Assembly (NCBI GenBank): GCA_964421535.1
Contig: CAYQYB010000002.1
Location: 1-45,231 of the forward strand
DNA length: 45,231 nucleotides
Direction: 5' to 3'
Source of the DNA: an uncultured Verrucomicrobiota bacterium
GTDB lineage: Bacteria > Verrucomicrobiota > Kiritimatiellia > CAIQIC01 > JAGNIJ01
The notes beneath the pieces were generated by a model. That model made no database searches. It had not been told where the DNA came from and saw only the letters and a list, made by a program, of their open reading frames with translations. Of this stretch, positions 1-22,267 are shown one piece after another. Both the position numbers and the translations under genes were made by a program. Each line of letters begins with the position of its first letter. The first letter of the stretch is position 1.

Positions 1-2
1 TC

Positions 3-1547
3 CCGCCGGAGCCGAACGGCTACCTGCACATCGGGCACGCGAAGGCGATCTGCATCGATTTCGGCACGGCGCTGAAGTACGGCGGCGAGTGCCACCTGCG
101 CATGGACGACACGAACCCGACGAAGGAAGAGGTCGAGTACATCGAGTCCATCAAGGAGGACGTCCGCTGGCTGGGCTTCGACTGGGGCAAGCATTTCTAT
201 TTTGCGTCGGACTTCTTCGGCAAGATGTACGACTGCTGCGTTGAGCTGATCAAGAAGGGCAAGGCCTACGTCTGCGCGCTGAGCATGGACGAGTGGAAGG
301 ACTACCGCGGCTCGCCGCCGAACCCCGGCAAGGAGAGCCCGTACCGCAACCGGCCGGTCGAGGAAAGCCTGCGGCTGTTCGAGGAGATGCGCGCCGGGAA
401 GTACGCCGACGGCTCTCTCTGCGTCCGCGCGAAGATCGACATGGCGTCGTCGAACATCCACCTGCGCGACCCGGTGATCTACCGCATCCTGCACGCCGAG
501 CACCCGAACACCGGAAACAAGTGGTGCGTCTACCCGACGTACGATTTCGCCCACCCGCTCGAGGACGCCTACGAGGGCATCACGCATTCGATGTGCACGC
601 TGGAATTCGAGGTGCACCGACCGCTGTATGACTGGGTGATCGACAACCTCGACAACCTGCCGTCGCGGCCGCGGCAATACGAATTTGCGCGGCTGAACCT
701 CGGCTACACCGTGATGAGCAAGCGTCGGTTCATCGAACTGGTGGAAAAGAAGCTCGTGAACGGCTGGGACGACCCGCGCATGCCGACGATCGGCGGCATT
801 CGGCGCCGCGGCTACACGCCGGAGGCGATCCGCAATTTCTGCGAGACGATCGGCGTTACGAAATTCGAAAGCCTGACCGACGTGGCCCTGCTCGAGTTCT
901 GCGTCCGCGAGGACCTCAACAAGCGCGCGCTGCGGCGGATGGCCGTGCTCAAGCCGCTGAAGGTCGTCATCGAGAACGCATCGGAGATCCCGTCCGAGGT
1001 CGACGCGGTGAACAACCCCGAGGACGAGTCGGCCGGCACGCGCAAGATCCCGTTCTCCAGCGAGCTGTACATCGAGAGCGACGACTTCATGGATATCCCG
1101 CCGCCGAAATATTTCCGACTGTCGCCCGGCAAGTCGGTGCGCATCCGCTACGCTGGATTCCTGACCTGCCTGCGCAAGGAGAGCGACGCGATCGTCTGCA
1201 AGTGGTCGCCGCCGTCCGCCGAGCTGAAGGTGAAAGGGACGATCCACTGGGTATCCGCGAAGCACGCCGTCGCCGCCGAGGTGCGCCTGTACGACCGGCT
1301 GTTCACGGTCGAGAACCCGATGGCGATGGAAGGCCGCGACTACAAGGAGTTCCTGAACCCGCACTCGCTCGACATCGCCACCGCGCACGTCGAGCCGAGC
1401 CTGGCGGACGTCAACCCGCTGGCGCATTTCCAATTCGAGCGCATCGGCTACTTCAACGCCGACCCCGACTCCAAGCCCGGCAAGCCGGTGTTCAATCGCA
1501 CCGTCACGCTGAAGGATTCGTGGGCGAAGGAAGCGAAGAAGGGCTGA
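3..1547 (+). CDS. glnS: glutamine--tRNA ligase (GlnRS), 5' end truncated by window edge
   Basis: The frame is open from nt 3 (PPEPNGYLHIGHAKAICIDFG...), so the Met at 102 in the ORF track is internal and the gene continues upstream of the window. Class I aaRS HIGH motif (LHIGHAK) and KMSKS-type loop (VMSKRR). GlnRS-like core (YPTYDFAHPLEDAYEGITHSMCTLEF) and a C-terminal anticodon-binding part. Stop TGA 1545-1547. Confidence 0.93.
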   Translation, partial: PPEPNGYLHIGHAKAICIDFGTALKYGGECHLRMDDTNPTKEEVEYIESIKEDVRWLGFDWGKHFYFASDFFGKMYDCCVELIKKGKAYVCALSMDEWKDYRGSPPNPGKESPYRNRPVEESLRLFEEMRAGKYADGSLCVRAKIDMASSNIHLRDPVIYRILHAEHPNTGNKWCVYPTYDFAHPLEDAYEGITHSMCTLEFEVHRPLYDWVIDNLDNLPSRPRQYEFARLNLGYTVMSKRRFIELVEKKLVNGWDDPRMPTIGGIRRRGYTPEAIRNFCETIGVTKFESLTDVALLEFCVREDLNKRALRRMAVLKPLKVVIENASEIPSEVDAVNNPEDESAGTRKIPFSSELYIESDDFMDIPPPKYFRLSPGKSVRIRYAGFLTCLRKESDAIVCKWSPPSAELKVKGTIHWVSAKHAVAAEVRLYDRLFTVENPMAMEGRDYKEFLNPHSLDIATAHVEPSLADVNPLAHFQFERIGYFNADPDSKPGKPVFNRTVTLKDSWAKEAKKG

Positions 1548-1550
1548 CGG

Positions 1551-2267
1551 TCAAACACCTCCCACGATCACAAATCGCCCCGGCAGAATCCGTCGGATAC
1601 TCACACGCGTCATCCCCTGCGTGAGCCGTTCCAACTCCGGCCCGACGAAGCCGCGCCGGATCGAGAGCAGTCCGTCGTACCGGGCAAAGCTCCGGTGCAG
1701 GAACAGGCTCGCGAACGCGGCATAGCCCGCGTATGCCCACGGGCTCCGCGCGAGATCGCTGACGACGAAGCGCCGCCGCGCGGTCCGCGCCGCCAACGCG
1801 AGGAAGGCCGAGATCTTCCCGTCGGGCAGGTGATGCAGGAAGTGGTTGCAGAACACGTAATCCGCATCCGCGGTGTTCTCGAGAAGCTGGAAAGCGTCTC
1901 CGCAGACGACGGTCACCCCCTGCTCTCCCTCCGCCATCTTCCGCGCGTGTTCGGCGACGCGCGGATCGGCGTCGATCGCCGTCACGCGAAGACGAAGGCC
2001 CTTGCGTTGGGCCGCGCGGACGAGCCAGAGAGGAATGTCCGCGCCGCCGGCCCCCACGTCCACCAGGTGCCGCTCGCGCGACGGATCGGCGCGCATATCC
2101 TCGAGGACCCAGCGGGAGAGAATGGCGCGGTACCGGCTGAACAGGAGATTGGTCACCCGGAACTGGTCCACGGTGCGAAGCAGTTTGTTCGTATCGCACG
2201 CGGGATCGTCCATCAACTCGAGGGACGTCGAACGCTTTGTCATGTCGGGGATCATGGCGGATGTCAC
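1551..2267 (-). CDS. class I SAM-dependent methyltransferase (last gene of the PKS operon)
   Basis: 238-aa ORF with glycine-rich motif I (HLVDVGAGGADIP), acidic motif II (VTAIDAD) and FCNHFLHHL. The listed start is GTG at 2267 and overlaps the upstream stop as GTGA, which suggests translational coupling. In-frame ATGs at 2255 and 2243 are alternative starts. Confidence 0.8.
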   Translation of the reverse strand: MTSAMIPDMTKRSTSLELMDDPACDTNKLLRTVDQFRVTNLLFSRYRAILSRWVLEDMRADPSRERHLVDVGAGGADIPLWLVRAAQRKGLRLRVTAIDADPRVAEHARKMAEGEQGVTVVCGDAFQLLENTADADYVFCNHFLHHLPDGKISAFLALAARTARRRFVVSDLARSPWAYAGYAAFASLFLHRSFARYDGLLSIRRGFVGPELERLTQGMTRVSIRRILPGRFVIVGGV

Positions 2268-4264
2268 AGGTCATCCGAAACCGCGGCCACGCGCGTGGGA
2301 ACGCGCTCGAGCGTGTTGAAAGGAATGGTCAGCATGGCGAAGTACGCGGGCAGCATTTCGCGGAGCGGCGGGCGCAGGAGCAGGCGCCGGATGGCCCAGT
2401 CGCGCAGGCTCGTGGCCAACCGCCCGGTCCGCGTGCCCAGCCACATTCCACGCGCGGCGCGGGCGGATGCGGCGGCAAACGCCCGGCGGCGGAAGAAGTC
2501 GTAGTGAGAGAGAAGATCACCGGCCGCCGCGCCCTGCCGGCAGATCGCGACCAGCGCGTCAGCCAGGAACTCGGCGTCGGCGAACCCCGTGTTCATCCCC
2601 TGCCCGCCGATGGGGCTCATGACGTGGGCGGCGTCGCCGCAGCACACTACGCGGCCGCTGAAGTACCGGCGCGCAAGAACTCGCCTGACCCGGAACGGGC
2701 TCTGTGAGAGCCTCCGGCTTCCCGCCAGCTCGCGGCCGGAGCGTTCGCGGACGATCCTCTCGATGACACCATCGGGGGCATTCTCCATGAACGAGTCCGT
2801 GAGCACGATCCAGCGGCGGCGCCCGCCCGGGAGAGGGAACGATTCGACCGAGCCGCCCGGCGTGAAGAACAGATGCGCCTCGTCGGCGAGATCGCCGCGA
2901 TCCTCGAAGTCCGCCATCAGGAAATTGAGCCCGTAGTCCTTCGTGTCGACCGGGATTCCCGCAAGGTCCCGGACGAGGCTCCTGGCGCCGTCGCACGCGG
3001 CCAGGAACCGGGCGCGAACGGTTTCCTCGCCATTCGCGCTCTTCAGGGTCACGGCCACGTCGTTCGCCCCATCCTGCATGCCGGACACCTCGACGCCCCG
3101 GCGAAGTTCGACGGACGGGAACCGGCGAAGGCTTTCCTCCAGAAGGCCGATCGTCTCGCTCTGCGGCACGGAGAGAATGTACGCGTGATCGCCGGGCAGA
3201 TGACTGAAACTGACGCCACCCAGCATCCCGTCCCCGCCATGCACGACCGCTTTCCGGATCGTCACGCCGCGCCGCACGAGTTCGTGGTCCAGGCCGAGCG
3301 CCTTGAGGATCTTGAGCGACGGTGGCGTGACGCCGATCGCCATGGACAGGTCCGGCCGCTGGACGCGCTTCTCGACAACCAGCACTTTCAGGCCGTGCGA
3401 ACCAAGCAGGTTCGCCAGAAGCAGGCCGACGGGGCCCGCGCCCGCGACGACGACCTCCCAACCGCCGGCGGGGACCGGCTCGGACGGCCGACGCCGGAAC
3501 ACGCGATGCCCGGGTCCGCTGAGAACGATCCGCGCCAGCCTCGGGACCCAGTACGGAACAATGCCCTGGTACATGGCGAACGACTCGCCGTAGTGCTTGC
3601 GGTAACGCTGCTCCTTGAAGAGGGGGCCGACGATGCAATACGCGGTCCACGCGAGCGCAAGAATGAGCCGGTCAGGGGTCCAGACCGGACCCGTCCACAA
3701 CGTCAGCGCGAACGCGATGTACACGGGCTGGCGGACGTAGCGGTAAAGTCCACGCACCTCGAACGGCTGGTTCACGGGCCGGCGGCCGCGGAACACGGAC
3801 CACCAGCCGAGGCTGCCCATCTGAACGGAAAGGCCCGCGTCGTTCATGCCTTTGATCAGCAAGGCCCACGATGCGGCGTACGGAACGGTCCACGCGATCC
3901 AGCCCCATCCGCGCGGCTGGTACCAGAGAATCCCGGAGGGCGACCACAGGAGGAACACCACGAGCAACTGGAAGGAGGCGAACACGGCGAAGAGAGTCGT
4001 GCTCAAGTCGCGCCCCAACCCGAGCGGCGCACAGCGGCTCATCCATTTCCGCCCGAGAGGGCCGAGGAAGAAGGAGTGAAGAATCGGGAACTGCAGAACA
4101 AGCAGGGCGTTGACGAGGACCGCCGCGGCGCCGCGAAACGGACCGAGCCCGAGCGCCATGCCGGCGTACAGCCCGAACACCATCGCCCCGACGCCGGCGG
4201 CGAAGAGCGCGTGAGCAAGCACGCCGTACAGGAGAGCCACGGCCCGTTGTGTCCGCGTGTACAT
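2264..4264 (-). CDS. fusion protein: polytopic ICMT/PEMT-like membrane methyltransferase (N-terminal) + FAD-dependent aromatic monooxygenase (C-terminal)
   Basis: 666-aa ORF. The N-terminal ~250 aa has several hydrophobic helices and a YRYVRQPVYIAF...EQRYRKHYGESFAMY segment like the catalytic C-terminal region of ICMT/PEMT/NnrU-type enzymes. The C-terminal ~400 aa carries flavoprotein monooxygenase motifs of the UbiH/PHBH class: VVVAGAGPVGLLLANLLGSHGLKVLVVEKR (GxGxxG), CDGARSLVRD (DG motif) and GDAAHVMSPIGGQGMNTGFADA (GD motif). ATG 4264 lies 6 nt after the PKS stop. Confidence 0.82.
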   Translation of the reverse strand: MYTRTQRAVALLYGVLAHALFAAGVGAMVFGLYAGMALGLGPFRGAAAVLVNALLVLQFPILHSFFLGPLGRKWMSRCAPLGLGRDLSTTLFAVFASFQLLVVFLLWSPSGILWYQPRGWGWIAWTVPYAASWALLIKGMNDAGLSVQMGSLGWWSVFRGRRPVNQPFEVRGLYRYVRQPVYIAFALTLWTGPVWTPDRLILALAWTAYCIVGPLFKEQRYRKHYGESFAMYQGIVPYWVPRLARIVLSGPGHRVFRRRPSEPVPAGGWEVVVAGAGPVGLLLANLLGSHGLKVLVVEKRVQRPDLSMAIGVTPPSLKILKALGLDHELVRRGVTIRKAVVHGGDGMLGGVSFSHLPGDHAYILSVPQSETIGLLEESLRRFPSVELRRGVEVSGMQDGANDVAVTLKSANGEETVRARFLAACDGARSLVRDLAGIPVDTKDYGLNFLMADFEDRGDLADEAHLFFTPGGSVESFPLPGGRRRWIVLTDSFMENAPDGVIERIVRERSGRELAGSRRLSQSPFRVRRVLARRYFSGRVVCCGDAAHVMSPIGGQGMNTGFADAEFLADALVAICRQGAAAGDLLSHYDFFRRRAFAAASARAARGMWLGTRTGRLATSLRDWAIRRLLLRPPLREMLPAYFAMLTIPFNTLERVPTRVAAVSDDL

Positions 4265-4270
4265 GGCGAA

Positions 4271-5428
4271 TCAGCCCAACTCCGCCCGTTGCGGGGCCGT
4301 TTCACCGGCAGGCTGGACCCGCGCCGGAAGCGCGTGAAGCAGGCCGAGCTCGATGGTCAACCCGGGGCCGAACGCCATCGCGCACACGGACGTTTCCTTC
4401 CCGGCGGGCCGGTGCCTCAGGAAATCGGCGAGCACGAACAGGATGGTCGCGCTGCTCATATTTCCGAACCGTCCCAGAACGGAACGAGAGACATCGAGCG
4501 CGTCCTTCGGCAAACCGAGCCCCTTCTCGACCTTGTCCAGAATCGCCTTCCCGCCGGGGTGCACGGCCCAGAACTCGATATCCCGGCGGTCGAACCCGGC
4601 GCCGGCCAGAACCGGATCCACAAGCTCGGCAATGTTCGCGCCGATAATGTCAGGCACGTAGCTGCTGAGCACGATGTTGAACCCGTGGTTGCCGATCGAC
4701 CACGCCATGTCCTTCTCTCCGCCCACGGCGTGGCCGGTGGCGAATTGGCCCAGGCGGTACACGGACCGAGCGGCAAGGTTCTCCCGCGCGTGCACGATCG
4801 CACACGCCGCCCCGTCGGAGAACAGCGCGTTCGCCAGCACCGAATCCGCGCCGCCGTTGACTTGAAGATGCAGGCTGCAGAACTCGAGACACAGAACGAG
4901 CACGACGGCGCGCGGGTCCGCCTCGCAGAACTGCTGGGCCATTTTCAGCGCGGGAAACGCCGCGTAGCAGCCCATGAAGCCGAGGTGGAACCGCTGCGTG
5001 GAGGGGTTCAGGCCCAGGTCGGTGACCAGGTGGAAATCGAGGCCCGGGTTGCTGAATCCGGTGCAGGACGCCGTCACCACGTGCGTGATCTCCTCGCGGC
5101 GGATTTCGGGGCAGGCGGCGAGGGCGCGGCCCGCGACCCGGCCGGCCAGCACGCGGGACTCCCGCGCGAAGACATTGTTCCGCTCCTCCGTGCCGGGATT
5201 GGCCAGCCGCCCGGAGGCATCCGTCGGAAAAAGCTTCGCGTCCTCGGGATTCGCGAAATCCTCGCAGACGCTGTGCCGGTACTGGATGCCGGACTGCCTG
5301 TAGACGTGGTGAACGATCCGTCGATCGCGCTCGGACGCCGTCCAGGACTTCATCTGCTCGCGCGCGAAATCCTGCGAGTAGGCGTAATCCGGCACGCCGG
5401 TTTCCAAATGGAGTATGTGGGTTGACAT
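4271..5428 (-). CDS. type III polyketide synthase (chalcone synthase superfamily)
   Basis: 385-aa ORF. Active-site contexts: Cys (VVTASCTGFSNPG), His (FWAVHPGG), Asn (RFGNMSSATILF). GGAGGAG lies about 9 nt upstream of ATG 5428. The gene sits 31 nt downstream of the YceI gene stop on the same strand. Confidence 0.9.
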   Translation of the reverse strand: MSTHILHLETGVPDYAYSQDFAREQMKSWTASERDRRIVHHVYRQSGIQYRHSVCEDFANPEDAKLFPTDASGRLANPGTEERNNVFARESRVLAGRVAGRALAACPEIRREEITHVVTASCTGFSNPGLDFHLVTDLGLNPSTQRFHLGFMGCYAAFPALKMAQQFCEADPRAVVLVLCLEFCSLHLQVNGGADSVLANALFSDGAACAIVHARENLAARSVYRLGQFATGHAVGGEKDMAWSIGNHGFNIVLSSYVPDIIGANIAELVDPVLAGAGFDRRDIEFWAVHPGGKAILDKVEKGLGLPKDALDVSRSVLGRFGNMSSATILFVLADFLRHRPAGKETSVCAMAFGPGLTIELGLLHALPARVQPAGETAPQRAELG

Positions 5429-5459
5429 GGCGATCGACTCCTCCGCCGCAGGGCGCGGC

Positions 5460-6023
5460 CTACTCCTTCTTCAGGACAACGTGGGCCAGAACGTCCACGC
5501 GGTCGCTCACCTTCATCATACCCATCATGGACGGCGGTTTCACCCCATACTGGCCAAGGCTGACGGGAAATGCCATGTCGAACTCAACGCGCTTCTCGTC
5601 CTCCTGCCAGTTGGACACGTCCGCCTCGACCTGTGAATCCCTGGCGAGCAGGCTGAGTTTGAGAGGAAGCTTGGACGGTCCGGCGGCATTTCGAAAAGCG
5701 GCCGGAGCCGCGCGGGCCACGGCGCCACGGATGATGGGGAACTCGACCACCTTCAGGAGGGCGCGCATCTTGCGGTCGCGGGCGCCGTTGCCGGTGTTCA
5801 TCTGGTCCGCTGTCACGTTGACGTCCACGCTCCAGGTTTCCTCCCCGTTCTCCGCCTGCGCCACCGCAACCTCGAACGGCTGGCTGTGTACGGTTCCCCT
5901 GAAATCGTGCAGCGTGGAATGGCCCGTGAATTCGATGGAGCATTCGCCCGTGAGCGCGGCTCCCGCCCGCGCCGACAACGCAAAGGCCAGCCAAGCGGCT
6001 GCCTGTATTTGTGCGATTCTCAT
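5460..6023 (-). CDS. secreted YceI-like lipid/polyisoprenoid-binding protein
   Basis: 187-aa ORF with a signal peptide (MRIAQIQAAAWLAFALSARAGA). YceI-family hallmarks: FTGHSTLHDFRGT and MNTGNGARDRKMRALLKVVEFP. First gene of the PKS operon. Confidence 0.75.
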   Translation of the reverse strand: MRIAQIQAAAWLAFALSARAGAALTGECSIEFTGHSTLHDFRGTVHSQPFEVAVAQAENGEETWSVDVNVTADQMNTGNGARDRKMRALLKVVEFPIIRGAVARAAPAAFRNAAGPSKLPLKLSLLARDSQVEADVSNWQEDEKRVEFDMAFPVSLGQYGVKPPSMMGMMKVSDRVDVLAHVVLKKE

Positions 6024-6147
6024 ATCCCCCTGCCCTCCAAGAGCGGCGCGTCACTATACCACGGGGTTATCGCCTTTCAAGAGGTGCATCAATCCGCGTG
6101 CGCCGGCGCACGCGTTCTGGCAAGATCGGCGGGAGCGAGGAGGCACC

Positions 6148-6891
6148 ATGACACAATGGCATGACGACGATGGATTCTGGAACGCGTGGGCCCCGGTCAT
6201 GTTTCCCCCGGAGCGGTTCGAGAAGGCCGGGGCGGAGGTCGAGCAGATCCTCGCGCTTCTGAAACCCCGGCCCGGCGCGGCGATTCTGGATCTCTGCTGC
6301 GGCCCCGGCCGTCATTCCGTCGAACTCGCCCGCCGCGGATACAAGGTCACCGGCGTGGACCGCACGCGGTCGTACCTCGCGCGGGCGCGCCAGTCGGCGG
6401 CGAAGGCGAAGCGCGACGTCGAGTTCGTTCTGGCCGACATGCGACGCTTCCGCCGGCCGCGCGCGTTCGACGCGGTCGTCAACATGTTCACCGCGTTCGG
6501 CTATTTCAAGAAGCAGGCCGACGACATCCGCGTCCTGAAGAACGTGTACGCCTCGCTCAAGCCGGGCGGCGTGTTCCTGATGGACCTGATGGGCAAGGAG
6601 CGAATCGCAAGGATCTTCAACCCGCGCACGTGGCACCGCGAGCCGGACGGGACGATCATCCTGGAGGAGCGCTGGCTGGAAGACGACTTCGGCTGGATCG
6701 AAAACAAGTGGACGATGATCCGCAAGGGGCGCATGCGCACGCACGCCATCTCGCACCGGCTCTACTCCGCCGTCGAGCTGCGCACGCTGCTGAAGCAGGT
6801 CGGCTTCGCGCGGGTGAAGGCGTTCGGCAGCCTGGACAGGAAGCCTTACGACCACGATGCCCAGCGCTTGGTCCTCGTGGCGCGAAAGTGA
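6148..6891 (+). CDS. class I SAM-dependent methyltransferase
   Basis: I place the start at ATG 6148, with a GGAGCGAGGAGG purine run just upstream. The longer listed ORF (from 5422) would run antisense through the YceI gene. Motif I ILDLCCGPGRHSVELARRGYKVTGVDRT, then FVLADM, NMFTAFGYF and LKPGGVFLMD. Divergent from the PKS operon across a 124-bp spacer. Confidence 0.85.
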   Translation: MTQWHDDDGFWNAWAPVMFPPERFEKAGAEVEQILALLKPRPGAAILDLCCGPGRHSVELARRGYKVTGVDRTRSYLARARQSAAKAKRDVEFVLADMRRFRRPRAFDAVVNMFTAFGYFKKQADDIRVLKNVYASLKPGGVFLMDLMGKERIARIFNPRTWHREPDGTIILEERWLEDDFGWIENKWTMIRKGRMRTHAISHRLYSAVELRTLLKQVGFARVKAFGSLDRKPYDHDAQRLVLVARK

Positions 6892-7774: not shown

Positions 7775-7862
7775 CAACGCAGCGCGGCGATATCTTCTGT
7801 TGCCGACGCCGACGGGTGCGGGTAGTCTTTCCGGCGGGTTGAAACAGAGGCGTTCCGACTGT

Positions 7863-10800
7863 ATGGCCGCCAAACCGCGAGCAAAGACCATTTCGGATTA
7901 TCTCGACCGGCTCACCGGGCCGGCCGACCGGGCACGGCGGGCCCGGGAGGCCAAGGCCGACATCATCTGCGTCGGCGGCGGGCGCAAGTATCTCCGGAAG
8001 AGGATCATCTCCAGGGGGGAGATGGGGGTGATCTACGAGGTCGAGGACGTGGACTGCCGCCGCACCGTCGCGCTGAAGGTCCTGCCGCGCAGGCGCGGCG
8101 TACCCGCCAAGGACACGCTCCGGTTCATCGCCGAGGCCCAGATCACCTCCCAGCTCGAGCACCCGAACATCGTCCCCATTCACGACCTCGGCATCGACGA
8201 CGACGGCAACGTGTTCTACACCATGAAGTACGTGCGCGGGCACACGCTGGCCGAGGTGCTGGACCGGATCAAGCGCGGCGACCCGGACACGATCCGCAAG
8301 TACCCGCTGTCCCGCCTGCTGAACGTCTTCCAGCGCATCTGCGAGGCGCTGACGTTCGCGCACGCGCGCCGCGTCGTGCACCGCGACATCAAGCCCAGCA
8401 ACGTGATGCTGGGCGACTACGGCGAGGTGCTGCTCATGGATTGGGGGCTGGCCAAGCCGGTCGACTCGTTGAAGCCCGTCGCGGCCGCCGCGCCGGCCCA
8501 CTCCCTGCCGTCGGTATCCACGCGTCGGACCGAGGGCCAGGGCTTCTCCCTGGGAACCCTGAAGGGACAGGTGCTCGGCAGCCCGGGGTTCATGGCGCCG
8601 GAGCAGGTGTATGACCACGACCGCATCGACACGCGGGCGGACATCTACGGGCTGGGCGCCGTCCTGTACCACATCCTGACGCTGCAGCCCACGGTCCCCC
8701 CCAGCGGCGCGATGAACGTGCTCAAGAGAATCGTGTCCGGCGACTTCCCCCCGCCGCTGTTCTTCGACCGCGGCGGGGCCTCGCCGCAGAAGTTCCCGCA
8801 CTGCCCTGACGGCCGCATACCGCCCATCCTGTCCGACATCGCGATGCGCGCCCTGGCGACGAACCCGGACGAGCGCTATCCAACGGTCGCGTCGCTGCAG
8901 GAAGACGTCGAGGCGTATCAGAACGGCCAGATCTGGATCCCGGTGATCGACGAGGATTTCACGGATCCGAACATCGAGGACCGGTGGGACCTGGTCAACG
9001 CCCGCGGGGAACTGCGCGACGGCGAGTTCGTCGTCGACGGCGGCGAGCCGTTCCTGATGATCCTGAGGAAGCCGGTCTCCGGCGACATCCGCATCGAATT
9101 CGAATGCCAGCAGGACGGCAGCAGCCTGAACGACCTGTCCTGCTTCATCGCGGCCGTTCCGGTGCCGAACAAGCGGGACATCTACCTGACCGGCTACGAG
9201 TTCAAGTTCGGCGGGTACAACAACTCCATGATCCTGCTCATCCGGAACGACATCCGGCTCTGGGCCAGGTCCACGTCGCCCATCGAGCGAGGGCGGCGCT
9301 ACCACGTGGTCGCCGAGCGCGTTGGCCCGCGACTGCGCCTGCTGGTGAACGGCGTCGAGATCTACCGGGTCAACGATCCGAACCCTCTTTCGGGCCCGCA
9401 CCGGAACGTGGCGGGCCTGTTCGGCTGGAGCGCGACGACGCGGTACTTCCGCGTGCGCATCTACACGCTTCAAGCTGCGGGACAGAGCGACCTGCTCGAT
9501 TTCGCAGACCGCCAGGCGCAGAAGGGCAACTACGCGATGGCGGAAATGCTGTACGACGAGGTGGCGCGCACGTATCGCGATCCGATCAAGGCCCAGCACG
9601 CCCGCGAGGGACTCGACATCGCCATCCGCAACAAGATGCTCAGCGAGGACATCCCCAGGATCCGCGAGCACCTGGAACGAACCTGGCCGGGACGGATCGT
9701 CCAGCTGGCCCTGGACCACGACGGGCTGACGCTCGACATCACCGGCGGCAGCATCACGGACCTGGAACCGCTGCGGGGACTGCCGATCCGCGCGCTCCAC
9801 TGCGCCAGCAACCGGATCCGGAGCCTCGAGCCTCTCCGGGGCATGAAACTGGTGTCGCTGGATTGTTCGGGCAACCCTCTTTCAAGTCTCGACCCGATCC
9901 GGAACATGCCCATGGCGAAGCTGCTTTGCGAATGCTGCGCGATCACCGACATCACGCCGCTGCAGGGCATGCCCCTCCAGCTTCTCTCCGCCGGCGGCAA
10001 CCCGCTCGGCTCGCTGGAGCATCTGCGGGGGCTCCCCCTGACCAACCTGTACATCTGGGGGACGGGCATCCGCGACCTCGAGCCGCTGCGCGGCATGCCG
10101 CTCACCACCCTGCACTGCAACGCGAACCGCATTGCCGATCTCGGGCCTCTCGAATCGGCGCCCCTCGTATCGCTCAACTGCGCCGGCAACGAGATCGAGC
10201 GTCTCGATCCGCTCCGCGGCATGCCGCTCCGGTTCCTGACCCTCAACCAGAACCGGATCTCGGACCTGGGACCGCTGCGCGGAAGCCAGATCTGCATCCT
10301 GACCTGCGCGGGCAACCGCATCCGGAGCCTCGCGCCCCTCGAAGCGATGCCGCTGTTCGGGCTCGTCTGCGGCAACAACGAGCTGGCCAGCCTCGATCCC
10401 TTCGTGGAGAACCCGCCGACCAACTTCACCTACGACTGCGACACGCTGAACGCGCGGGAGATTCGGCGCGCGCGATCCGCATGGAAGCGAAGGAAGGACC
10501 GCCTTCCGCTGGCCAACCAGGCCGACGTCCTCCTCGCGCTGCGGGAAGGCAAAACCGAGGCCCTGCACGGCCTGGCGGCGCACGTGGATCGCCACGCGTA
10601 TCTCTTCATTCCGAAGTCCATGACCTGGGAGGATGCGCGCGCGTTCTGCGAGCAGCTGGGCGGACATCTGTTCGTCGTCCGGTCGGAAGAAGAGCACGCG
10701 CTCCTCGATTCCTGGTTCGGCTCCTACTGGGTCTGGATGGGGCTGCGGGTGACGGAACACGGTCCTGAATGGGTAACCGGCGAACCGGTGGAGTACACGA

Positions 10801-10952
10801 ACTTCGCGAATCTTCTGCATGCGCTGCGGATCGGCCCCAAGGTGTTCGCGAAGAAATGGTCCTCCCAGGACGAGCCCGGCTTCGAGAACTGCTTCGTGAT
10901 CGAATGGGACCTGCCGTTCGAACGCGCTCACACCCGCCGAAACCATCAATAG
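7863..10952 (+). CDS. Ser/Thr protein kinase with jelly-roll (ConA/DUF1080-like) domain, ~11 leucine-rich repeats and C-terminal C-type lectin-like domain
   Basis: ATG 7863 is preferred over the listed TTG 7800. Hanks kinase motifs: VALKVL, HRDIKPSNVML, DWGLAK (DFG position), GSPGFMAPE. These are followed by a jelly roll (YHVVAERVGPRLRLLVNGVEIYRVND), a helical linker, the LRR array and a CTLD (MTWEDARAFCEQLGGHLFVVRSEEEH...WVWMGL...WVTGEP...ENCFVIEW). I see no signal peptide or hydrophobic helix. Confidence 0.9.
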   Translation: MAAKPRAKTISDYLDRLTGPADRARRAREAKADIICVGGGRKYLRKRIISRGEMGVIYEVEDVDCRRTVALKVLPRRRGVPAKDTLRFIAEAQITSQLEHPNIVPIHDLGIDDDGNVFYTMKYVRGHTLAEVLDRIKRGDPDTIRKYPLSRLLNVFQRICEALTFAHARRVVHRDIKPSNVMLGDYGEVLLMDWGLAKPVDSLKPVAAAAPAHSLPSVSTRRTEGQGFSLGTLKGQVLGSPGFMAPEQVYDHDRIDTRADIYGLGAVLYHILTLQPTVPPSGAMNVLKRIVSGDFPPPLFFDRGGASPQKFPHCPDGRIPPILSDIAMRALATNPDERYPTVASLQEDVEAYQNGQIWIPVIDEDFTDPNIEDRWDLVNARGELRDGEFVVDGGEPFLMILRKPVSGDIRIEFECQQDGSSLNDLSCFIAAVPVPNKRDIYLTGYEFKFGGYNNSMILLIRNDIRLWARSTSPIERGRRYHVVAERVGPRLRLLVNGVEIYRVNDPNPLSGPHRNVAGLFGWSATTRYFRVRIYTLQAAGQSDLLDFADRQAQKGNYAMAEMLYDEVARTYRDPIKAQHAREGLDIAIRNKMLSEDIPRIREHLERTWPGRIVQLALDHDGLTLDITGGSITDLEPLRGLPIRALHCASNRIRSLEPLRGMKLVSLDCSGNPLSSLDPIRNMPMAKLLCECCAITDITPLQGMPLQLLSAGGNPLGSLEHLRGLPLTNLYIWGTGIRDLEPLRGMPLTTLHCNANRIADLGPLESAPLVSLNCAGNEIERLDPLRGMPLRFLTLNQNRISDLGPLRGSQICILTCAGNRIRSLAPLEAMPLFGLVCGNNELASLDPFVENPPTNFTYDCDTLNAREIRRARSAWKRRKDRLPLANQADVLLALREGKTEALHGLAAHVDRHAYLFIPKSMTWEDARAFCEQLGGHLFVVRSEEEHALLDSWFGSYWVWMGLRVTEHGPEWVTGEPVEYTNFANLLHALRIGPKVFAKKWSSQDEPGFENCFVIEWDLPFERAHTRRNHQ
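9753..10432 (+). repeat. about 11 tandem 22-residue leucine-rich repeats (66-nt periodicity) inside the kinase gene
   Basis: Repeating L(E/D)PLRGMPLxxLxCxxNxIxx units, for example LEPLRGMKLVSLDCSGNPLSS, LEPLRGMPLTTLHCNANRIAD and LDPLRGMPLRFLTLNQNRISD. Confidence 0.85.
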
Positions 10953-11406: not shown

Positions 11407-14400
11407 TCAGGGCGTGAGCGACCAACGGACATTGTCGATGCTGAACTGGTTTGCATCGCCGTCCATCCGCTGCCAGCTCGGATACGAGCTGCTGAAGTCG
11501 GTGCTCTTGAGGATGCACGGCGTGTTGAACGGAGTATCCAGCGCCATGAACAGCGTGCCCGAATCCGTGAACACGAAGTCGGACGCGTTGCCGTAGTACC
11601 CGCACCACGAGCCGGACCACGAGGCGCCGCCGTCGGTCGTCTTGTAGACCGATCCGTTCACGCCGCACACGAAGCCCGTCTGCGTGTTCTGCCAGCCCGT
11701 GCCGTAGAACGCGTCATACGAGGCCGGAATGCCGATGTCCGTCCACGTGGCGCCCGCGTCGGCCGACTTCCGGATCGCGGCGCCTTCGCCGGACACCACC
11801 ACGTTCGTCGCGTTGATCACGAACACGTCGACCAGCACCTCGGTGCCGACATCGAGTTCCGTCCACGTCGCGCCCCCGTTCACCGTGCGCATGACCTTGC
11901 CGGTGCCGTACCAGAAGCCGCCGACCGCCCAGCCGTTGTTGGCGTTCGCGAATCGGAGCTTGGAGTAGTACACGTACATGTTCGTGCAGGCATACTGCGC
12001 CGTCCATGTCGCGCCGCCGTTGACGGTCTTGAAGATCCGCCCGTGAACGGCGCGGTCCAGGGCCCAGCCCGTGTTCGCATCGATGAAGTCCACGCTCCAA
12101 ATGCTGGCATTCGTGAACCCGTTCGTCTGCTGCGTCCACGTCAACCCGCCGTCCGTCGTGCGCAGGACGCCCTTGTCGGCCGCGGCGATCCAGCCCGTGT
12201 TCGTGCTGACGAAGTCCACGTCGTAGAACGTCGCGAGCTCGAAGTTCGTGCCCGGGGTCAGGAACGTCCAGTTCGTGCCGCCGTTGCCCGACGTCTTCAG
12301 GATCGAGCTCACCTGCACCCCGCGGCCGCCGTCGTACATCGAGCCGACCGCGTAGCCGACATTCGTCGACGGGAACGAGAGCGACTTCGACCGCGGCGCC
12401 AGGAGCGTCACGGAGAAGGAGCCGAACACGTTCGTGAGCGGCCGGCCGAACCCGAAGTTCGTGATCGGGATCGTGACCTCCTGCCACTGGCCGGCCAGCG
12501 CCGGATTCCAGTTGGAGCCGTAGAGATCGACGGCCTTCTTGGTGTTCAGCGGAGCCTCGATCTCGATCTTGATCGGCCGGCGCGACTTGACCCAGAACTT
12601 CATGTAGTTGAACCGGCTCAGGTCGATCGTGAAGCTCGGGTAGAAGACTCCCCAGCCGCCATACAGGTACGGCACGATGCTCTTCCAGTACTTCACGCCC
12701 TCGGGCGCGCCGTTCGTGTAGTTGCCGTCATTGATGCTGCTGCCCCAGACCGGCGCGCTCGCCCCCATCGGGATGCCGATGTCCGCGTAGGCGATGTAGC
12801 TGCCGCCCGTGCTGTTCATGCGCACAGTCGTCTCCGGCTCCACGCCGGCTCCGCTCGGGGCAAACCGGAACGTGTCGTCACGCCCGATGCGCTGGCCCTG
12901 CGGATCCGCCGCGTTGGTCGGATAGATGTACGCGACCCACGCGTAGTTGCTGCCCGGAGGCACGCCCGCCGGGATCGTGATCGGGTACGCCCCGCTGCCG
13001 CTCGCCACGGACACGGCGAAGTTCGACTCCATGTACCGGCACCCGGTCATCGCGTCCTGCAGGTAGATGCCCATCCGCGACGGAACGATGTCCAGGTTCT
13101 CCCAGTCCACCGGCACGTTCACGGTCTGGCCGATCGACAGGTTGGTCGGGAAGGTGGCTTGCTCCACCATCAGCCGCGGCGTGAAGTACAGCGAGGCCGC
13201 CTGCGAGCCGCGCGTGTTCTCCTCGCGCAGGTACGCAAAGAACTCGTACACGCCGCCGTACGCGGAGCCGTCGTACTCCCACCAGGCCGGGTCGTAGTCC
13301 GGCACGGTCGCCCACAGCATGTCGTTGGTCGTCTTCGGCGCGAACTCGCCGAGCACGTTGTCGCGGAGCGCGGTCGAGTACTGCTCGTCCACGAGCCGGA
13401 ACGAGTCGATGTTCATCGTGCCCGCGTAGTACGGGCTCAGGAAACCGACCGTCGTGGAGGTCCAGTTGGTCACCTGGATCGGCTCGTCCAGGAACACCGG
13501 CACGTTGTTCACGTACAGGTCGGTCCGCTTGTACGGGGCGCCGTCGCGGATGCTCACCCGGACGTCCACCCACTGGAGCTGAGGCACCTGGTTGCTGACG
13601 TAGTTCGGGACGTTGTCCGCCCAGCCGCAGAGGGTCGGGTTCACGTAGCACACGCGCCCGCCGAACGTCATCCCGCCCTCGCTCGCGTTGTTGAAGTACG
13701 CGCGGTACTCCACCGTCACGTTCCGGCCGGTCACGTTCAGGCCCGTGCGCGTGACGTACGCATAGCCGTAGTTCGTGCCGAGCACGGTCGCATACAGCAT
13801 GTTGTTGGTTTCCTGCCAACTGATGTTGGCGTGCGGCGTGATGGTCCAGCCGGAGAGGGTCGCGTCGTTGAAGTTATCCTCGTTCAGCAGCGTGCCCTTC
13901 TCCTTGAAGCCGTACGCCATGGCCACCGACTGCGTCGCGTTGTAGAGCGTCCAGATGTCCCAGTCGCGCCCCGCGTACACGTAGCGCGGCAGGCCCATCA
14001 GCTGCAGGCCGCAGCCCGCGAGCTTGACCAGGGGGCCGCCGTCGTTGCCGGACGAGTACGAGCCGCCGGCCGCGAGCCACGGATCCGCCGCGTCCCACGG
14101 ATAGACGAACATCGACCAGTACAGGTTCGTGCCGGTCATGATGTTCTCCGTCGGGATCGTGATGTAGAGCGTGTTCGTGCCGCTGCCCGTCAGGATCCAG
14201 CCGTTCGTGACCACGACCGTCAGGTCGCCGTCCGGATTCAGCGGATCGAGCTGGTACTTGAGTTCAAGGCGGACCTTGTACGCCTGGCCCTGCACCCATT
14301 CGAACGCTCGCTTGGCGAGGTTGCTGAACACGGTGCCCGTCAGCAACGTCCCCGTGTCGATGCCGAAGTTGAAGCAGAAGACCTTCGCCGGAGCGCCCGG

Positions 14401-17400
14401 GTTGTTCGTGATCGTGTTCACGATCAGCGCCGGCTTGCCGCCGGCGTTCGTGATCGTGCCCAGGGCCTTCCCGCTCGTCACCAGCGGCCACACCACGGCC
14501 GCGCCCGATGCCGTCAGGTTCGAGCCCGGCTTGTAGTCCAGCGTCACGTAGTGGTCGTTGGTGCCAACCACGACGCGGCTCACCAGCGTCAGGTTCGTGA
14601 TCGTCGTGGCCACGCCGAACAGGTCCTCGATGCGGCCCGTGTCGTTCGCGTTCAGCTCGTTCCTGCGCGCGACGCCGCCGTCGGTGGCCAGCAGAGAGTG
14701 CAGACCGTTCGTCAGCCACGTCCGGACGTTCAGCACTTCCGTGTCGCTCATGACGTACGTGCTCGGCAGGACGAGCATCGGGAAGAAGCTCTGCAGGTAG
14801 CCCCAGTCGAGGTTCAGCGGCTTGCCGACCGCGAGCGTCTCGCCGTTGTCGCCGTAGTAGCTCAGCTCATCGTCGTCGATGAAGTAGTAGCCCTTCTGCG
14901 GCTCCCAGATGCCGAGCTGCTCCGCGCGCGTGCCCAGCGCCACCTTGCCGCTTGCGAAGTTCGTCGCCCAGAACGTGCCGACGAGCGCGTTGTTGAAGTA
15001 CACCTTGTTCGTGCTGCCGTAGGCCTCGACCTTCAGGTTGTACCACAGGTTCTCCGCCGGGATGTTCGTCTTGGCGAAGTCATACAGCCAGCCCTGCTGG
15101 GCCACGGCCCCACCCGCCTTGACGGTGTACTTGATCCGCCAGAACCCGTAGTAGTTCCGAATGCCGACCTTGTAGTAGTTGCTCCGGTTCTGGTAGCGGA
15201 ACAGCATCTCCGCGTCGCTGAAGTAGTAGCCCTTCTTCTGGTACCGCACGTCCATGGACAGCGTGTGGTTGGTCCACGTGCCCGAGCTGATGCCGAAGAG
15301 GTTGTCGTCGTTGCCGATGCGCCACGCCCTCAGGCTGTACCCGCTGCCCGTGTTCCGGTAGTCCTCCATCACCTGGTTGGATGTCAGGCAGGTGTTGAAG
15401 ATCTTGATTTCGTCCATCACGCCATTCAGCCCGTAACCCGTGTAGCCACGCGCGATCAGGACCGCGTTCGTTGTCTTCACGGGCAGGGTGTTCGTATCGT
15501 TCGCGTACGTCGTCGTGTTCCGCTGAATGCCGTTCACGAAACTCTTCAACGTGCGGTTCTTCCCGTCACGCGTGATCGTAATATGCATCCACGAGTTGTT
15601 CGTGACGCTGTTCGCCGGCAGCGCAGCCCAGCTGATGTACTGGCCCGAAACCTTGGCCTTGCCCTGGAAGAAGTTCAGCGAGCGGTTCGTCTCGATCGTC
15701 AGCGAGAACTCGCCGCCGTAGCTCTTGTCCAGAGGGTTGATCCGGCCGGAGCCAATGTTCTGCCCCTTGATCCAGAAGCTCAGCGTCAGGTTGCTGTTCA
15801 CCTGCAGGTACGACGTGTTCGTGCAGATGACGTAGTTGGTCGAAGTGAACGAGCCCGCCCGCGTGCGGCGCGCGTCGTTCGTCGTGCGCGGGCCGTTCAC
15901 CGGCGTGCCGTGGTTCGCGCGGCCGGAGCTGTCCACCACCTGCCTCACCCCGTTCGTCCACGCCGCCTCGTCGCACTTCCAGTAACCGACCGTCCCCGTG
16001 ACCAGGCTGGTCGGCGAAGGCAGGACCGCCCAGTTGCCGCAACCGGCAAGCCGCGCCCACCCGGTGTAGTTGCCGTCGTTGAAGTCGTCGGTGAACGTGC
16101 CGTTCACGAGCACGTTGTCGAACAGAACGTCCTGCGGATTGCTGTTGCTGTAGCCCAGCCTCTGCAGCCAGTCGCACACGGCGTTCACCTTGGTGAACTG
16201 CCCGGGGTAGTACTGCTCGGTCTTGCTCGACCGGAAGATCGCCACGCGCGACGGGAACGCGCTGTTGCGCGCCAGCGGCGTGTTCTGCCAGTAGAGCTGC
16301 TCGTAGAGGTCCTCCCACTCGACCGGTATGCTGACGACCTGGCCCTTGATCAGGTTGTTCGAGATCGTGGCGGTCGGTCGAATGCCCCACTCCAGCCGCG
16401 TCGGGAACGGCGTGGACTCGGCCACGCGCTGCGTCGGGCTGACCTCCAGCGAGGCCAGGAACTGGTACTTGCCGCCGTCGATCGTCGACTTGTAATCCGT
16501 GTCGGTCGTGCTGTAGTCCGGGATCCACATCCAGAAGATGTTCTCGCCGTTCGCCACGGCGTTGGTCGTGAGAACCTGGTAGATCTCGTTCGTCACGCCG
16601 TCGCCGTTGTCGCCGGCCTCCATGAACGCCAGCCGCAGCGTCAGTCCGGCGGTGCCCGCGCTGTCATACTTGACCCGCACCGAGATCAGCCGGTTGCTGT
16701 AGCCGACCGGGTGGATGATGGACGGGCCGTCCTTGATCTGCACGACGTAGGGCACGTTGGTGTCCACGACCGCAAACGGCCACGCCGTGCCGTCGCTGAA
16801 AGCGTAGAAGTAGGACCCGGCGTTGAAGAACGCCCAGCCGTTCTTTGTGAAGGGATCGTACGAGCTGTAGCCTCCATAGAGGTAATCTCCGCTCCAGAGC
16901 TGCGCGCCATTCGTCGGATTCAACGCGTAGAACTTGTCGGCGTTGAAGTAGATCGCGTTGTTCGCGCACATCACGGAGCTGCCGTACGCCAACGGGAACT
17001 GGACCTGCCACAGCAGGCTCGTCGACGCCGCGTTGAACGCGTACATGTAGCAGTTGGTCGAGCTGAGCTGCTGGCCCAGGATGAACATCCGCCCGTTGGC
17101 CACAGCCGGCCCGGTTTGCTGGAACATGATATTGAAGCCGCTGTAGTGGAACAGGTTGCTGCCCGTGTTCAGGTCGTACACCCGCACGCCGTCGCCGCCG
17201 TCGTTCATCGCCACGTAGATCCGGTTGCTGTAGACGGCCGGCGCCGACTGCGCCCAGCCCGACCGCGGTATGTAGGTCGACCACATCTGGCTGCCGTTCG
17301 TGGTGTTGAAGGCGTACATCGTGGAGCCGACCACGATCAGCAGCTTGTTGCTGGCCAGCGTGACGCCCGCGTAGTGGGACGAGCCCACCGTGTTGCTCGA

Positions 17401-21603: not shown

Positions 21604-22128
21604 ATGAGCACATTCACAGAACTTCGCCCCGAGGACATCAAGGACAACCCGTTCAAGCTCATCGGCGGCGACTGGATGCTCATCACCGCCGGCGATATGA
21701 AGTCCTTCAACACGATGACCGCGAGCTGGGGCGGCCTCGGCGTGCTCTGGGACAAGAACGTCGCGTTCTGCTTCGTCCGGCCCACGCGCCACACGTTCGA
21801 GTTCATGAACAAGGCAGAGACCTTCACGCTCTCGTTCTTCGACGAACGGTATCGCGGCGTGCTGACCTACTGCGGCTCCCACTCCGGCAAGCACGTCGAC
21901 AAGGTCAAGAAATGCGGCATCACGCCGGTGAAGGGCTCGACCGACGACGTCTACTTCGCAGAAGCCCGCCTTGTCCTCGAATGCCGCAAGCTCTACTTCG
22001 CAGATATCAACCCGTCCGCGTTCCTCGCGCAGACACTGACGGATGTTTATCCGGAGAAGGATTATCATCGGATGTATATCGGCGAGATCGAGCACGTCCT
22101 CTGCAGGGAAGTTACGAAGACGGGTTAA
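21604..22128 (+). CDS. flavin reductase-like (FMN-binding split-barrel) protein
   Basis: 174-aa ORF with CAGGAGG 7 nt upstream of the ATG. Typical N-terminal pattern of the flavin reductase-like domain family (NPFKLIGGDWMLITAG...FNTMTASWGGLGVLWDKNVAFCFVRPTRHT). Confidence 0.82.
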   Translation: MSTFTELRPEDIKDNPFKLIGGDWMLITAGDMKSFNTMTASWGGLGVLWDKNVAFCFVRPTRHTFEFMNKAETFTLSFFDERYRGVLTYCGSHSGKHVDKVKKCGITPVKGSTDDVYFAEARLVLECRKLYFADINPSAFLAQTLTDVYPEKDYHRMYIGEIEHVLCREVTKTG

Positions 22129-22154
22129 CCACGAAAAACACGAATGGACACGAA
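22124..22154. repeat. right arm of the inverted repeat bracketing the flavin reductase gene
   Basis: GTTAACCACGAAAAACACGAATGGACACGAA overlaps the TAA stop (22126-22128). A third, degenerate copy in the left-arm orientation (CTCCGTGTCTCCGTGGTT) lies at 23922-23939. Confidence 0.55.
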
Positions 22155-22190
22155 GGGGATGCGTCTTCGTCAGCACTCCAATCTCTGAAG

Positions 22191-22238
22191 ATTGGGGAGA
22201 TCGAACGGGTGCTGCACCGCGAACCGACGAAGGGTTGA
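22191..22238 (+). pseudogene. relic 3' end of a flavin-reductase homologue (15 codons + stop), out of frame with and downstream of the intact gene
   Basis: 22191-22238 translates to IGEIERVLHREPTKG*. The end of the intact gene (22078-22128) is IGEIEHVLCREVTKTG*. Twelve residues are identical, and most nucleotide differences are synonymous-type third-position changes. Confidence 0.5.
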
Positions 22239-22267
22239 GACACGGAAGTAAAGGAGAGGGGGACATT

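Follow-up and report, generated by a model that had tools for sequence, protein, structure and literature searches.

The 45,231-nt stretch of DNA analyzed here (hereafter the window; contig CAYQYB010000002.1 of an uncultured Verrucomicrobiota bacterium) carries four co-directional minus-strand genes that probably direct the synthesis of a tailored, i.e., methylated and hydroxylated, long-chain phenolic lipid. The genes encode a YceI-like protein, a type III polyketide synthase (PKS), a fusion of a polytopic membrane domain with a flavin adenine dinucleotide (FAD)-dependent monooxygenase, and a class I S-adenosylmethionine (SAM)-dependent methyltransferase (MT1). The enzyme classes, a resorcinol-type determinant in the PKS, operon-like packing and conserved co-occurrence in relatives were all observed. 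Every coordinate in the initial annotation of these genes was reproduced from the open reading frame (ORF) list and a reading of the junctions. The YceI and PKS genes are separated by 31 nt, the PKS and fusion genes by 6 nt, and the fusion and MT1 genes overlap by 4 nt (GTGA). Across a 124-bp spacer, the gene for another class I methyltransferase (MT2) is transcribed divergently from the YceI gene. The features are:

5460-6023, minus strand: YceI-like protein of 187 amino acids (aa), first gene of the operon (from the ORF list and junction reading)
4271-5428, minus strand: type III PKS, 385 aa, predicted long-chain alkylresorcinol synthase
2264-4264, minus strand: membrane domain::FAD monooxygenase fusion, 666 aa (from the ORF list and junction reading)
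3530-4264, minus strand: fusion residues 1-245, N-terminal polytopic membrane domain, putative SAM-dependent methyltransferase acting on the lipid product while in the membrane
3467-3529, minus strand: fusion residues 246-266, flexible linker between the two domains, placed by low predicted local distance difference test (pLDDT) scores and a variable alignment
2264-3466, minus strand: fusion residues 267-666 and stop codon, group A FAD-dependent aromatic monooxygenase domain, predicted resorcinol-ring hydroxylase
1551-2267, minus strand: MT1, class I SAM methyltransferase, 238 aa, GTG start, PRK06202-like, last gene of the operon
6148-6891, plus strand: MT2, divergent class I methyltransferase (Pfam), 247 aa, a neighbor only
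6053-6080, minus strand: candidate operon promoter, TTGAAA-16 nt-(TG)TATAGT, located in the spacer of 124 bp, some 30 nt ahead of the YceI start codon

The G+C content is uniform across the operon region (0.65-0.69). The promoter-like site matches 10 of 12 consensus positions and has an extended -10 element, as judged by a sigma-70 consensus that may not be that of Kiritimatiellia. Two promoter-like sites were found against 0.3 expected from shuffled sequences and, among the operon genes, only YceI has one upstream. No convincing terminator-like site was found between the four operon genes; the sole minus-strand match lies within MT1 (2013-1997), and terminator-like matches were fewer than the shuffle expectation. 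The pattern is weakly suggestive of a single transcription unit. A scan of the rest of the window revealed no transporter, acyl-activating enzyme or acyl carrier protein assignable to the cluster. Above their Pfam gathering thresholds, the operon proteins match YceI (PF04264), Chal_sti_synt_N and _C, FAD_binding_3, and Methyltransf_25 and _11.

The PKS scores 95.5 bits on PF02797 and 73.4 bits on PF00195, against a cut-off of 27 for each. Similarity to FabH is low by comparison: NCBIfam FabH models give 42-57 bits against cut-offs of 249-292, and ACP_syn_III domains score far lower. The best matches among solved structures (PDB) are Ectocarpus PKS1, Mycobacterium tuberculosis PKS18, and Dictyostelium Steely1. 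In alignments, the catalytic positions of PKS18 and Ectocarpus PKS1 are occupied by Cys154 (FMGCYAA), His290 (WAVHPGG), and Asn323 (FGNMSSA) of the window enzyme. By scores and residues alike the enzyme is assigned as a genuine type III PKS and not a FabH, as had been proposed from its Cys, His, and Asn contexts. In a HMMER alignment Trp243 lies opposite Leu266 of PKS18, a position equivalent to ArsB Trp281 and ArsC Gly284 (PMC7064976). Mutational evidence shows that this ArsB 281/ArsC 284 position switches between resorcinol and pyrone cyclization (PMC6274091). Resorcinol formers have Trp at the ArsB-281 position, whereas pyrone synthases carry Gly or Leu (PMC7064976, PMC6274091). All three catalytic residues and Trp243 are invariant in 120 PKS homologs. 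With the aldol-favoring Trp in place, the enzyme is predicted to belong to the alkylresorcinol synthase subtype, and it is from this determinant that we infer a 5-alkylresorcinol as its product.

In the fusion, FAD_binding_3 (PF01494) covers residues 270-598 (E = 5.5e-55, 187 bits against a cut-off of 22). UbiH/MhpA-type NCBIfam models also match the flavoenzyme domain, all below their cut-offs, and no equivalog cut-off was reached. The best PDB matches are PnpA (6ain, E = 1e-35), PgaE, rifampin monooxygenase, and VisC; PHBH was matched as well. The motifs GAGPVG, CDGARS, and GDAAHxxxPxGGQG, corresponding to the GxGxxG, DG, and GD fingerprints, are invariant in the family alignment. By these signatures the C-terminal ~400 residues are classed as a group A flavoprotein aromatic monooxygenase of the PHBH/UbiH class. 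In a model of the full-length fusion both domains are confident, residues 246-266 fall below a pLDDT of 50, and the predicted template modeling score of the whole protein is 0.62; the linker region of the alignment is variable and gap-rich. The disordered linker and the whole-protein score point to a tethered pair of domains, for which no defined interface can be claimed. The two domains are also found in other arrangements. The membrane domain is a separate gene in three loci (L072, L024, L097), always inside PKS clusters, and a 628-aa protein in the representative library (P0402) reverses the order: FAD_binding_3 is N-terminal, and the membrane domain follows at residues 388-622. P0402 seems to be the outcome of a separate fusion event between these domains. 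In a rough neighbor-joining tree of flavoenzyme domains, built without bootstraps, fused and unfused forms are interleaved. This mixing, taken with the reversed fusion, suggests that fusion or fission has occurred repeatedly and hence that the two domains are functional partners.

The N-terminal membrane domain is less easily placed. The initial annotation called it an ICMT/PEMT-like methyltransferase, which holds only at the level of superfamily and motif; the Pfam, Foldseek, and hhalign comparisons fall short of it. The domain alone matches PEMT with E = 0.023 (15.5 bits against a cut-off of 25) and has no Pfam match to ICMT. PEMT was matched by 10 of 13 members of the domain family (best E = 8e-6); others match DUF1295, NnrU, or ICMT. 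Searched against the PDB, the family profile gave a single marginal match, to Ma-ICMT (4a2n, E = 0.056), at the C-terminal cofactor motif. An AlphaFold (AF2) model of the domain has a pLDDT of 91.8, and its top six Foldseek matches include ICMT (5v7p), SRD5A (7c83), a sterol reductase (4quv), and Ma-ICMT (4a2n), all with weak values (E 0.01-0.3, template modeling scores 0.2-0.37). A Bacillus BpsB ortholog scores 98 bits on PF04140 (ICMT), and hhalign detected no relation between it and our domain (probability 0.9%, 19 columns), a comparison of low sensitivity, with a single-sequence template.

The motif of the window domain is RYVRQPVY ... KEQRYRKHYGESFAMYQ, and that of its family is R-x-P-x-Y ... 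K-E-x-R-x-x-x-x-Y-G-x-x-F-x-x-Y. The ICMT motif, which we take from Ma-ICMT to be R-H-P-x-Y ... E-E-x-x-L-x-x-x-F-G-x-x-Y-x-x-Y, differs in that its His is replaced by Gln (RQP) in most members and its first Glu by Lys. About 50 residues of the domain are invariant, including R178, P180, Y182, K217, E218, R220, G226, and Y232. His18, His63, and Cys210 are likewise invariant; they lie within transmembrane helices and outside the ICMT motif. An exhaustive profile search recovered about 4,100 representative proteins with the domain, 111 of them at E<=1e-30, and most are standalone proteins of 240-265 aa. On this evidence, the domain is best described as an unmodeled branch of the ICMT/PEMT/NnrU/DUF1295/steroid-reductase superfamily.

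The first gene of the operon had been read as encoding a secreted YceI-like protein, and this was borne out: PF04264 scores 37 bits (cut-off 23.7), the N-terminus is hydrophobic and signal-peptide-like and is followed by a conserved F.G.STLHDF motif, the same holds in all six orthologs checked, and the position in the operon is conserved. The protein may serve as a periplasmic carrier of the lipid product. MT1 contains Methyltransf_25 and _11 and matches PRK06202 (E = 1.5e-54, below its NCBIfam cut-off). It is 51% identical to the last gene product of the Pontiella cluster and was found in about 45 related loci, which marks it as the conserved methyltransferase of the cluster.

About 95 related loci from several phyla were collected in all, and synteny was tallied over 89 loci. 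The operon genes are neighbors in most of the related loci, and chance adjacency was rejected on this conserved synteny. The fusion itself forms about 90 protein clusters (at 90% identity) with full-length coverage and 43-68% identity to the window protein. Carriers include Pontiella agarivorans, Pontiellaceae isolates, Roseimicrobium gellanilyticum, and many metagenome-assembled genomes (MAGs). A look-up of the window fusion itself in the contig index gave no match. Its closest public relatives are on metagenomic contigs (68% identical); among the species-representative matches listed in one genome-collection scan, the best relative has ~52% identity. The fusion is already labeled FAD oxidoreductase/isoprenylcysteine O-methyltransferase by the Joint Genome Institute (JGI). 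The combination of genes, of which the initial annotation knew no characterized example, is not rare: the fusion is both widespread and annotated, and a YceI-like gene with a type III PKS has been noted in 'Saltatorellus ferox' (PMC10896814).

In more than 40 of the related loci the YceI gene immediately precedes the PKS gene, and the order YceI-PKS-fusion occurs in about 30 loci of Verrucomicrobiaceae and Kiritimatiellia (Verrucomicrobiota and Kiritimatiellota). The check for conserved co-occurrence across phyla was positive and yielded one identical four-gene operon, YceI-PKS-fusion-MT1, in the Verrucomicrobiae MAG GCA_022072455.1, where a divergent two-component system lies beside it. Other relatives vary around this plan. 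The closest (68% identity) has YceI-PKS-U195-fusion-UbiE-like methyltransferase-MT1, Pontiella agarivorans has YceI-PKS-MMPL-fusion-methyltransferase-MT1, and Roseimicrobium has YceI-PKS-fusion. YceI-PKS-FAD-UbiE-like methyltransferase clusters, with no membrane domain within 7 kb, are found in other Verrucomicrobia and in Desulfuromonadales. PKS-MT1-FAD was tallied in 11 loci (Balneolales, Deinococcota, Arthrobacter), FAD-PKS-MT1 in four (Spirochaetales), and PKS-FAD-(UbiE-like methyltransferase)-MT1 in another 11. PKS, MT1, and flavoenzyme form a core trio that is also present in Deinococcus, Balneolales, Arthrobacter, and Spirochaetales.

We tried the proposition that class I methyltransferases are absent wherever the membrane domain is present, a pattern that would favor the domain itself as the methyltransferase. 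It was weakened by a hidden Markov model of MT1, which in many Prosthecobacter loci picked up diverged ORFs resembling MT1 on the downstream side of the fusion, and it now holds only for Roseimicrobium, Brevifollis, and a few other loci.

Additional genes accompany the sister clusters. U195 is a signal-peptide protein of 160-195 aa without a Pfam family that lies between PKS and fusion in the closest relatives (L085, 1673-2260; also L020, L021, L024, L027, L084, and L091) and is missing from the window; the 'lipoprotein' encoded by the S. ferox operon may be its equivalent. MMPL or AcrB-type resistance-nodulation-division (RND) transporters occur inside or beside many sister clusters (L001, 5987-8011; L014, L027, L041, L058, L097; L010, 1173-4316; L090, 1-4400), including MMPL transporters in Pontiellaceae loci, and the L090 locus also has an outer-membrane factor. 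No MMPL or RND transporter was found near the window operon. The transporters of the sister clusters suggest that the lipid is exported. OmpR-type two-component systems, composed of a HAMP-HisKA-HATPase sensor and a Response_reg/Trans_reg_C regulator, are divergent directly upstream of YceI in three loci (L001, 2361-4135; L091, 2778-4509; L092, 3495-5215). Such systems are more frequent neighbors than respiratory genes. In Roseimicrobium gellanilyticum (L003), Rrf2, globin, Usp, and PAS-sensor genes together with a cbb3-type oxidase operon border the YceI-PKS-fusion cluster (3827-5488 and 13424-18058), a low-oxygen setting that we saw in this genome only.

The initial annotation related the operon to srsABC, bpsAB, and the ars cluster. 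The functional classes of the srsABC type are present, but the closest conserved core is the Deinococcus/Balneolales-type PKS-methyltransferase-FAD trio, not srsABC, and the membrane domain is not a member of the ICMT family. The trio on the megaplasmid of Deinococcus radiodurans (M7777_RS15120-15130) consists of full-length homologs of the window PKS (45% identity), MT1 (37%), and flavoenzyme (39%). It differs in lacking YceI, in having a flavoenzyme without the membrane domain, in its order (PKS-MT-FAD), and in an added glycosyltransferase. At L093 (6974-8230) this glycosyltransferase gene and one for a phospholipase D-like protein come after the D. radiodurans trio, which hints that the phenolic lipid of that lineage is glycosylated.

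Planctomycetal mtr-fdo-t3pks operons and cyanobacterial hidABC share with the window an alkylresorcinol-type PKS, a class I methyltransferase, and a flavoenzyme (PMC10896814, PMC8086630). This three-gene form differs in its reversed gene order and the absence of YceI and of a membrane domain. HidABC makes hierridin B (PMC8086630), and C15/C17 alkylresorcinols were made in Corynebacterium by planctomycetal PKSs whose operons also encode a methyltransferase and a flavin oxidoreductase (PMC10896814). We compared the plasmid operon of Paludisphaera borealis, taken by its gene order (MT-oxidoreductase-PKS) as one of the mtr-fdo-t3pks type, of which the published study covers 58 operons. MT1 is similar over its full length (32%, E = 8e-15), and the PKS is 39% identical, with the Trp conserved.

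Streptomyces griseus srsABC, Mycobacterium smegmatis pkqABC, and Myxococcus ftp were compared by description. Like the window they combine a type III PKS, a membrane methyltransferase, and a FAD hydroxylase in an operon, and they provide the precedent for conversion of an alkylresorcinol via its methyl ether to an alkylquinone (PMC6669644, PMC9927152, PMC10896814). A class I methyltransferase and YceI are extra in the window operon. The annotation of SrsB places it in the ICMT family (PMC6669644), whereas the window domain represents a different, unmodeled branch within the superfamily and shares one polypeptide with the hydroxylase. A type III PKS on a Streptomyces plasmid, considered as a source of SrsB, proved to sit in an unrelated cluster with cupin and aminotransferase genes. 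Bacillus bpsAB likewise encodes a type III PKS together with a small methyltransferase that resides in the membrane and belongs to the same superfamily, but BpsB is a clear PF04140 member, there is no hydroxylase or YceI, and BpsA forms pyrones (leading to alkylpyrone methyl ethers). The link of the membrane domain to srsB and bpsB is therefore one of analogy and not of shown homology, since the domain scores below threshold and has no detectable relation to BpsB. The arsABCD cluster of Azotobacter vinelandii makes long-chain alkylresorcinols as envelope lipids, the kind of product predicted here, and work on its ArsB defined the Trp determinant. There, a dedicated type I fatty acid synthase, ArsA, feeds the PKSs, and no such genes are present in the window. 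We take ArsD to be the second type I fatty acid synthase of that cluster, and we know of no tailoring enzymes in it.

The closest published operon with respect to YceI is that of 'Saltatorellus ferox' Poly30, a pentacistronic operon encoding a lipoprotein, a lipid/isoprenoid-binding protein, two methyltransferases, and a type III PKS (PMC10896814). It is the only published operon we found that, like the window, combines a YceI-like lipid-binding protein and a secreted protein with a type III PKS and methyltransferases. The S. ferox PKS makes alkylresorcinols and is of the methylmalonyl-incorporating type (PMC10896814). As compared by description, the operon differs in this PKS, in its gene order, and in that no flavoenzyme is reported. 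Within the searchable library, the literature held nothing joining type III polyketide synthase and YceI as terms, no such clusters in Kiritimatiellota or Verrucomicrobiota, and no characterization of the Deinococcus cluster. The architecture is thus widespread and, in the literature searched, experimentally uncharacterized; it is a variant of the srs/hid/pkq-type phenolic-lipid pathway.

A tailored alkylresorcinol- or alkylquinone-type envelope lipid, as initially proposed, remains the best reading of this conserved operon with its flavin monooxygenase, class I methyltransferase, and signal-peptide YceI. In the pathway we envisage, the PKS would extend a fatty-acyl starter with three malonyl units and close the ring by aldol condensation to give a 5-alkylresorcinol. 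The flavoenzyme domain, whose class is established, would then hydroxylate the ring. By tethering it to the membrane, the N-terminal domain would place the flavoenzyme where the lipid partitions. MT1, and probably also the N-terminal domain, would methylate ring oxygens or carbons, for one or two methylations in all. This would yield a methoxy- or methyl-alkyl-hydroquinone, -quinone, or -phenol, comparable to the hierridins, the SrsABC alkylquinones, and the mycobacterial polyketide quinones. Finally, the secreted YceI barrel may take up the hydrophobic product in the periplasm and pass it to the envelope. This hand-over and export is supported by the MMPL/RND transporters and the second secreted protein, U195, in the sister clusters.

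A number of points weigh against this pathway. Co-transcription of the four genes is inferred from their spacing alone, and no member of the clade has a known product. The window operon is without the transporter, the UbiE-like methyltransferase, and the U195 gene present in relatives. A sequence search of YceI against solved structures in the PDB gave no match. The flavoenzyme of Paludisphaera is not orthologous to that of the window, the similarity being limited to the dinucleotide-binding (cofactor) and GD motifs; since the two are not orthologous, hierridin chemistry cannot simply be transferred from the planctomycetal (hid-like) oxidoreductase. The methyltransferase role of the N-terminal domain is a guess from its motif and from weak fold matches that equally include NADPH-dependent reductases. 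The domain lies below the Pfam ICMT and PEMT thresholds with no BpsB relation detected, and some of its distant relatives score higher on NnrU or DUF1295 than on PEMT or ICMT. These last points would also fit a different account, in which the pathway is the same and the domain is an anchor or substrate-access module, a reductase that uses NADPH, as SRD5A and the sterol reductases do, or a heme-dependent NnrU/Z-ISO-like protein. The Foldseek matches to SRD5A and the sterol reductase equal those to ICMT, the invariant His18, His63, and Cys210 are not residues of the ICMT motif, RHP reads RQP in most members, and many PKS clusters function without the membrane domain. On the other side, the C-terminal signature (Y/F)G-x-x-(F/Y)-x-x-Y after K-E is of the ICMT/PEMT type and it is there that the 10 of 13 members match PEMT; the COG-based JGI annotation is isoprenylcysteine O-methyltransferase; some 50 invariant residues are more than a pure anchor would need; and in Roseimicrobium, Brevifollis, and several Verrucomicrobiaceae loci the domain is the sole methyltransferase candidate near the PKS. 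We consider a non-methyltransferase role possible but the less probable of the two. Methyltransferase is retained, with modest confidence, as the likeliest activity, because the motif is closer to the ICMT/PEMT SAM-binding signature than to the reductase one.

The nature and use of the product can also be read otherwise. A polyketide quinone acting as a low-oxygen membrane electron carrier, as for mycobacterial pkq and in Streptomyces spores, instead of a structural or protective envelope lipid, would agree with the combination of PKS, methyltransferase, and hydroxylase, which is the pkq logic (PMC9927152). The cbb3 oxidase, globin, Usp, and PAS-sensor genes adjoining the Roseimicrobium gellanilyticum cluster point the same way. 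So does the best PDB match of the flavoenzyme, PnpA, which para-hydroxylates its substrate to yield a benzoquinone. Yet that respiratory context was seen in one genome, other loci adjoin OmpR-type two-component systems, RND/MMPL transporters, or unrelated genes, and no respiratory genes lie near the cluster within the window. A secreted YceI and transporters moreover indicate export, which an inner-membrane electron carrier does not need, and we regard this use of the product as unlikely. Still less can be said for alkylpyrones formed by lactonization, as by BpsA, PKS18, and ArsC, with the tailoring enzymes acting on the pyrone. PKS18 is among the best solved-structure matches, and resorcinol synthases often release pyrones in vitro (PMC7064976), but the invariant Trp243 occupies the cyclization-determining position at which pyrone synthases have Gly or Leu (PMC7064976, PMC6274091), and a group A phenol hydroxylase is always co-encoded; pyrones are accordingly very unlikely.

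The initial annotation had also counted MT2 as a possible pathway member. Its divergent position over the shared 124-bp spacer invites the idea that it adds a methylation in place of the UbiE-like methyltransferase found between fusion and MT1 in sister clusters, the more so as the closest relatives have a second class I methyltransferase that the window operon lacks. This was not upheld. MT2 has Methyltransf_25 and _11 (Pfam), its best NCBIfam matches are to unrelated methyltransferase families, all below cut-off, and it has no significant similarity to MT1. Its resemblance to the UbiE-like and CMAS-like methyltransferases in related clusters is confined to the Rossmann core (20-39% over ~100 aa), and it is orthologous to no cluster-associated methyltransferase; on this ground its identity as a relocated UbiE-like methyltransferase was rejected (compared with those of Pontiella, L085, and L010) and MT2 is treated as a neighbor. 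Among the ~95 related loci, no MT2 ortholog adjoining the cluster was found. A functional part in the pathway is thus improbable, and MT2 is probably an unrelated gene whose membership is unsupported. In three distant relatives, the divergent position that MT2 occupies in the window is taken by the OmpR-type two-component system.

In bacteria, lipids derived from alkylresorcinols serve in cyst envelopes, in tolerance of antibiotics, and in respiration at low oxygen. The way in which these insoluble lipids leave the inner membrane, and the ligands that most YceI proteins bind, are standing questions. With a PKS and secreted YceI together in more than 40 loci and MMPL/RND transporters in sister clusters, this operon family offers a tractable system for the question of lipid exit, and cultured carriers are available in Pontiella agarivorans, Roseimicrobium gellanilyticum, and Brevifollis gellanilyticus. 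As a natural-product cluster the operon is an incremental variant of srs/hid/pkq chemistry; its main interest lies in the YceI link and in the unassigned membrane-domain family. The repeated fusion of a hydroxylase to an unmodeled ICMT/PEMT/NnrU branch would give a first function to a family of ~4,100 representatives. One may speculate further, on a long shot, that Verrucomicrobiota and Kiritimatiellota share a dedicated route from membrane to periplasm for a polyketide quinone or quinol that is not isoprenoid, in which the bifunctional fusion would turn alkylresorcinol into a methoxy-alkylquinone in the bilayer and the cognate YceI, along with MMPL/RND transporters in sister clusters, would take it through the periplasm. 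If so, YceI proteins would gain a defined natural ligand. The Kiritimatiellota belong to the Planctomycetes-Verrucomicrobia-Chlamydiae (PVC) superphylum, and PVC bacteria would then have an envelope or respiratory quinone derived from a type III PKS.

The remainder of the window has several other features. A glutaminyl-tRNA synthetase gene (1-1547, plus strand) runs off the start of the window, with its HIGH motif at ~nt 20; its best named relatives are Kiritimatiellia proteins, with up to 80% identity, which places the host in the Kiritimatiellota. On the other side of the operon, 7800-10952 (plus strand) encodes a 1050-aa protein with a Ser/Thr kinase domain, leucine-rich repeats, and a C-terminal C-type lectin domain. 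It is followed by a single ORF of 3109 aa (11407-20736, minus strand) with an N-terminal hydrophobic segment, whose product is probably a giant secreted or surface protein. Between 20000 and 24000 the G+C content drops to 0.55-0.60 from ~0.65 elsewhere in the window. This stretch contains a 599-aa Sel1-repeat protein gene (22043-23842, plus strand) and may have been horizontally acquired; no tRNA genes were found anywhere in the window. Further along, 29878-33264 (plus strand) encodes a 1128-aa gingipain-like peptidase (Peptidase_C25 with propeptide) with C-type lectin domains and a bacterial TSP3 repeat.

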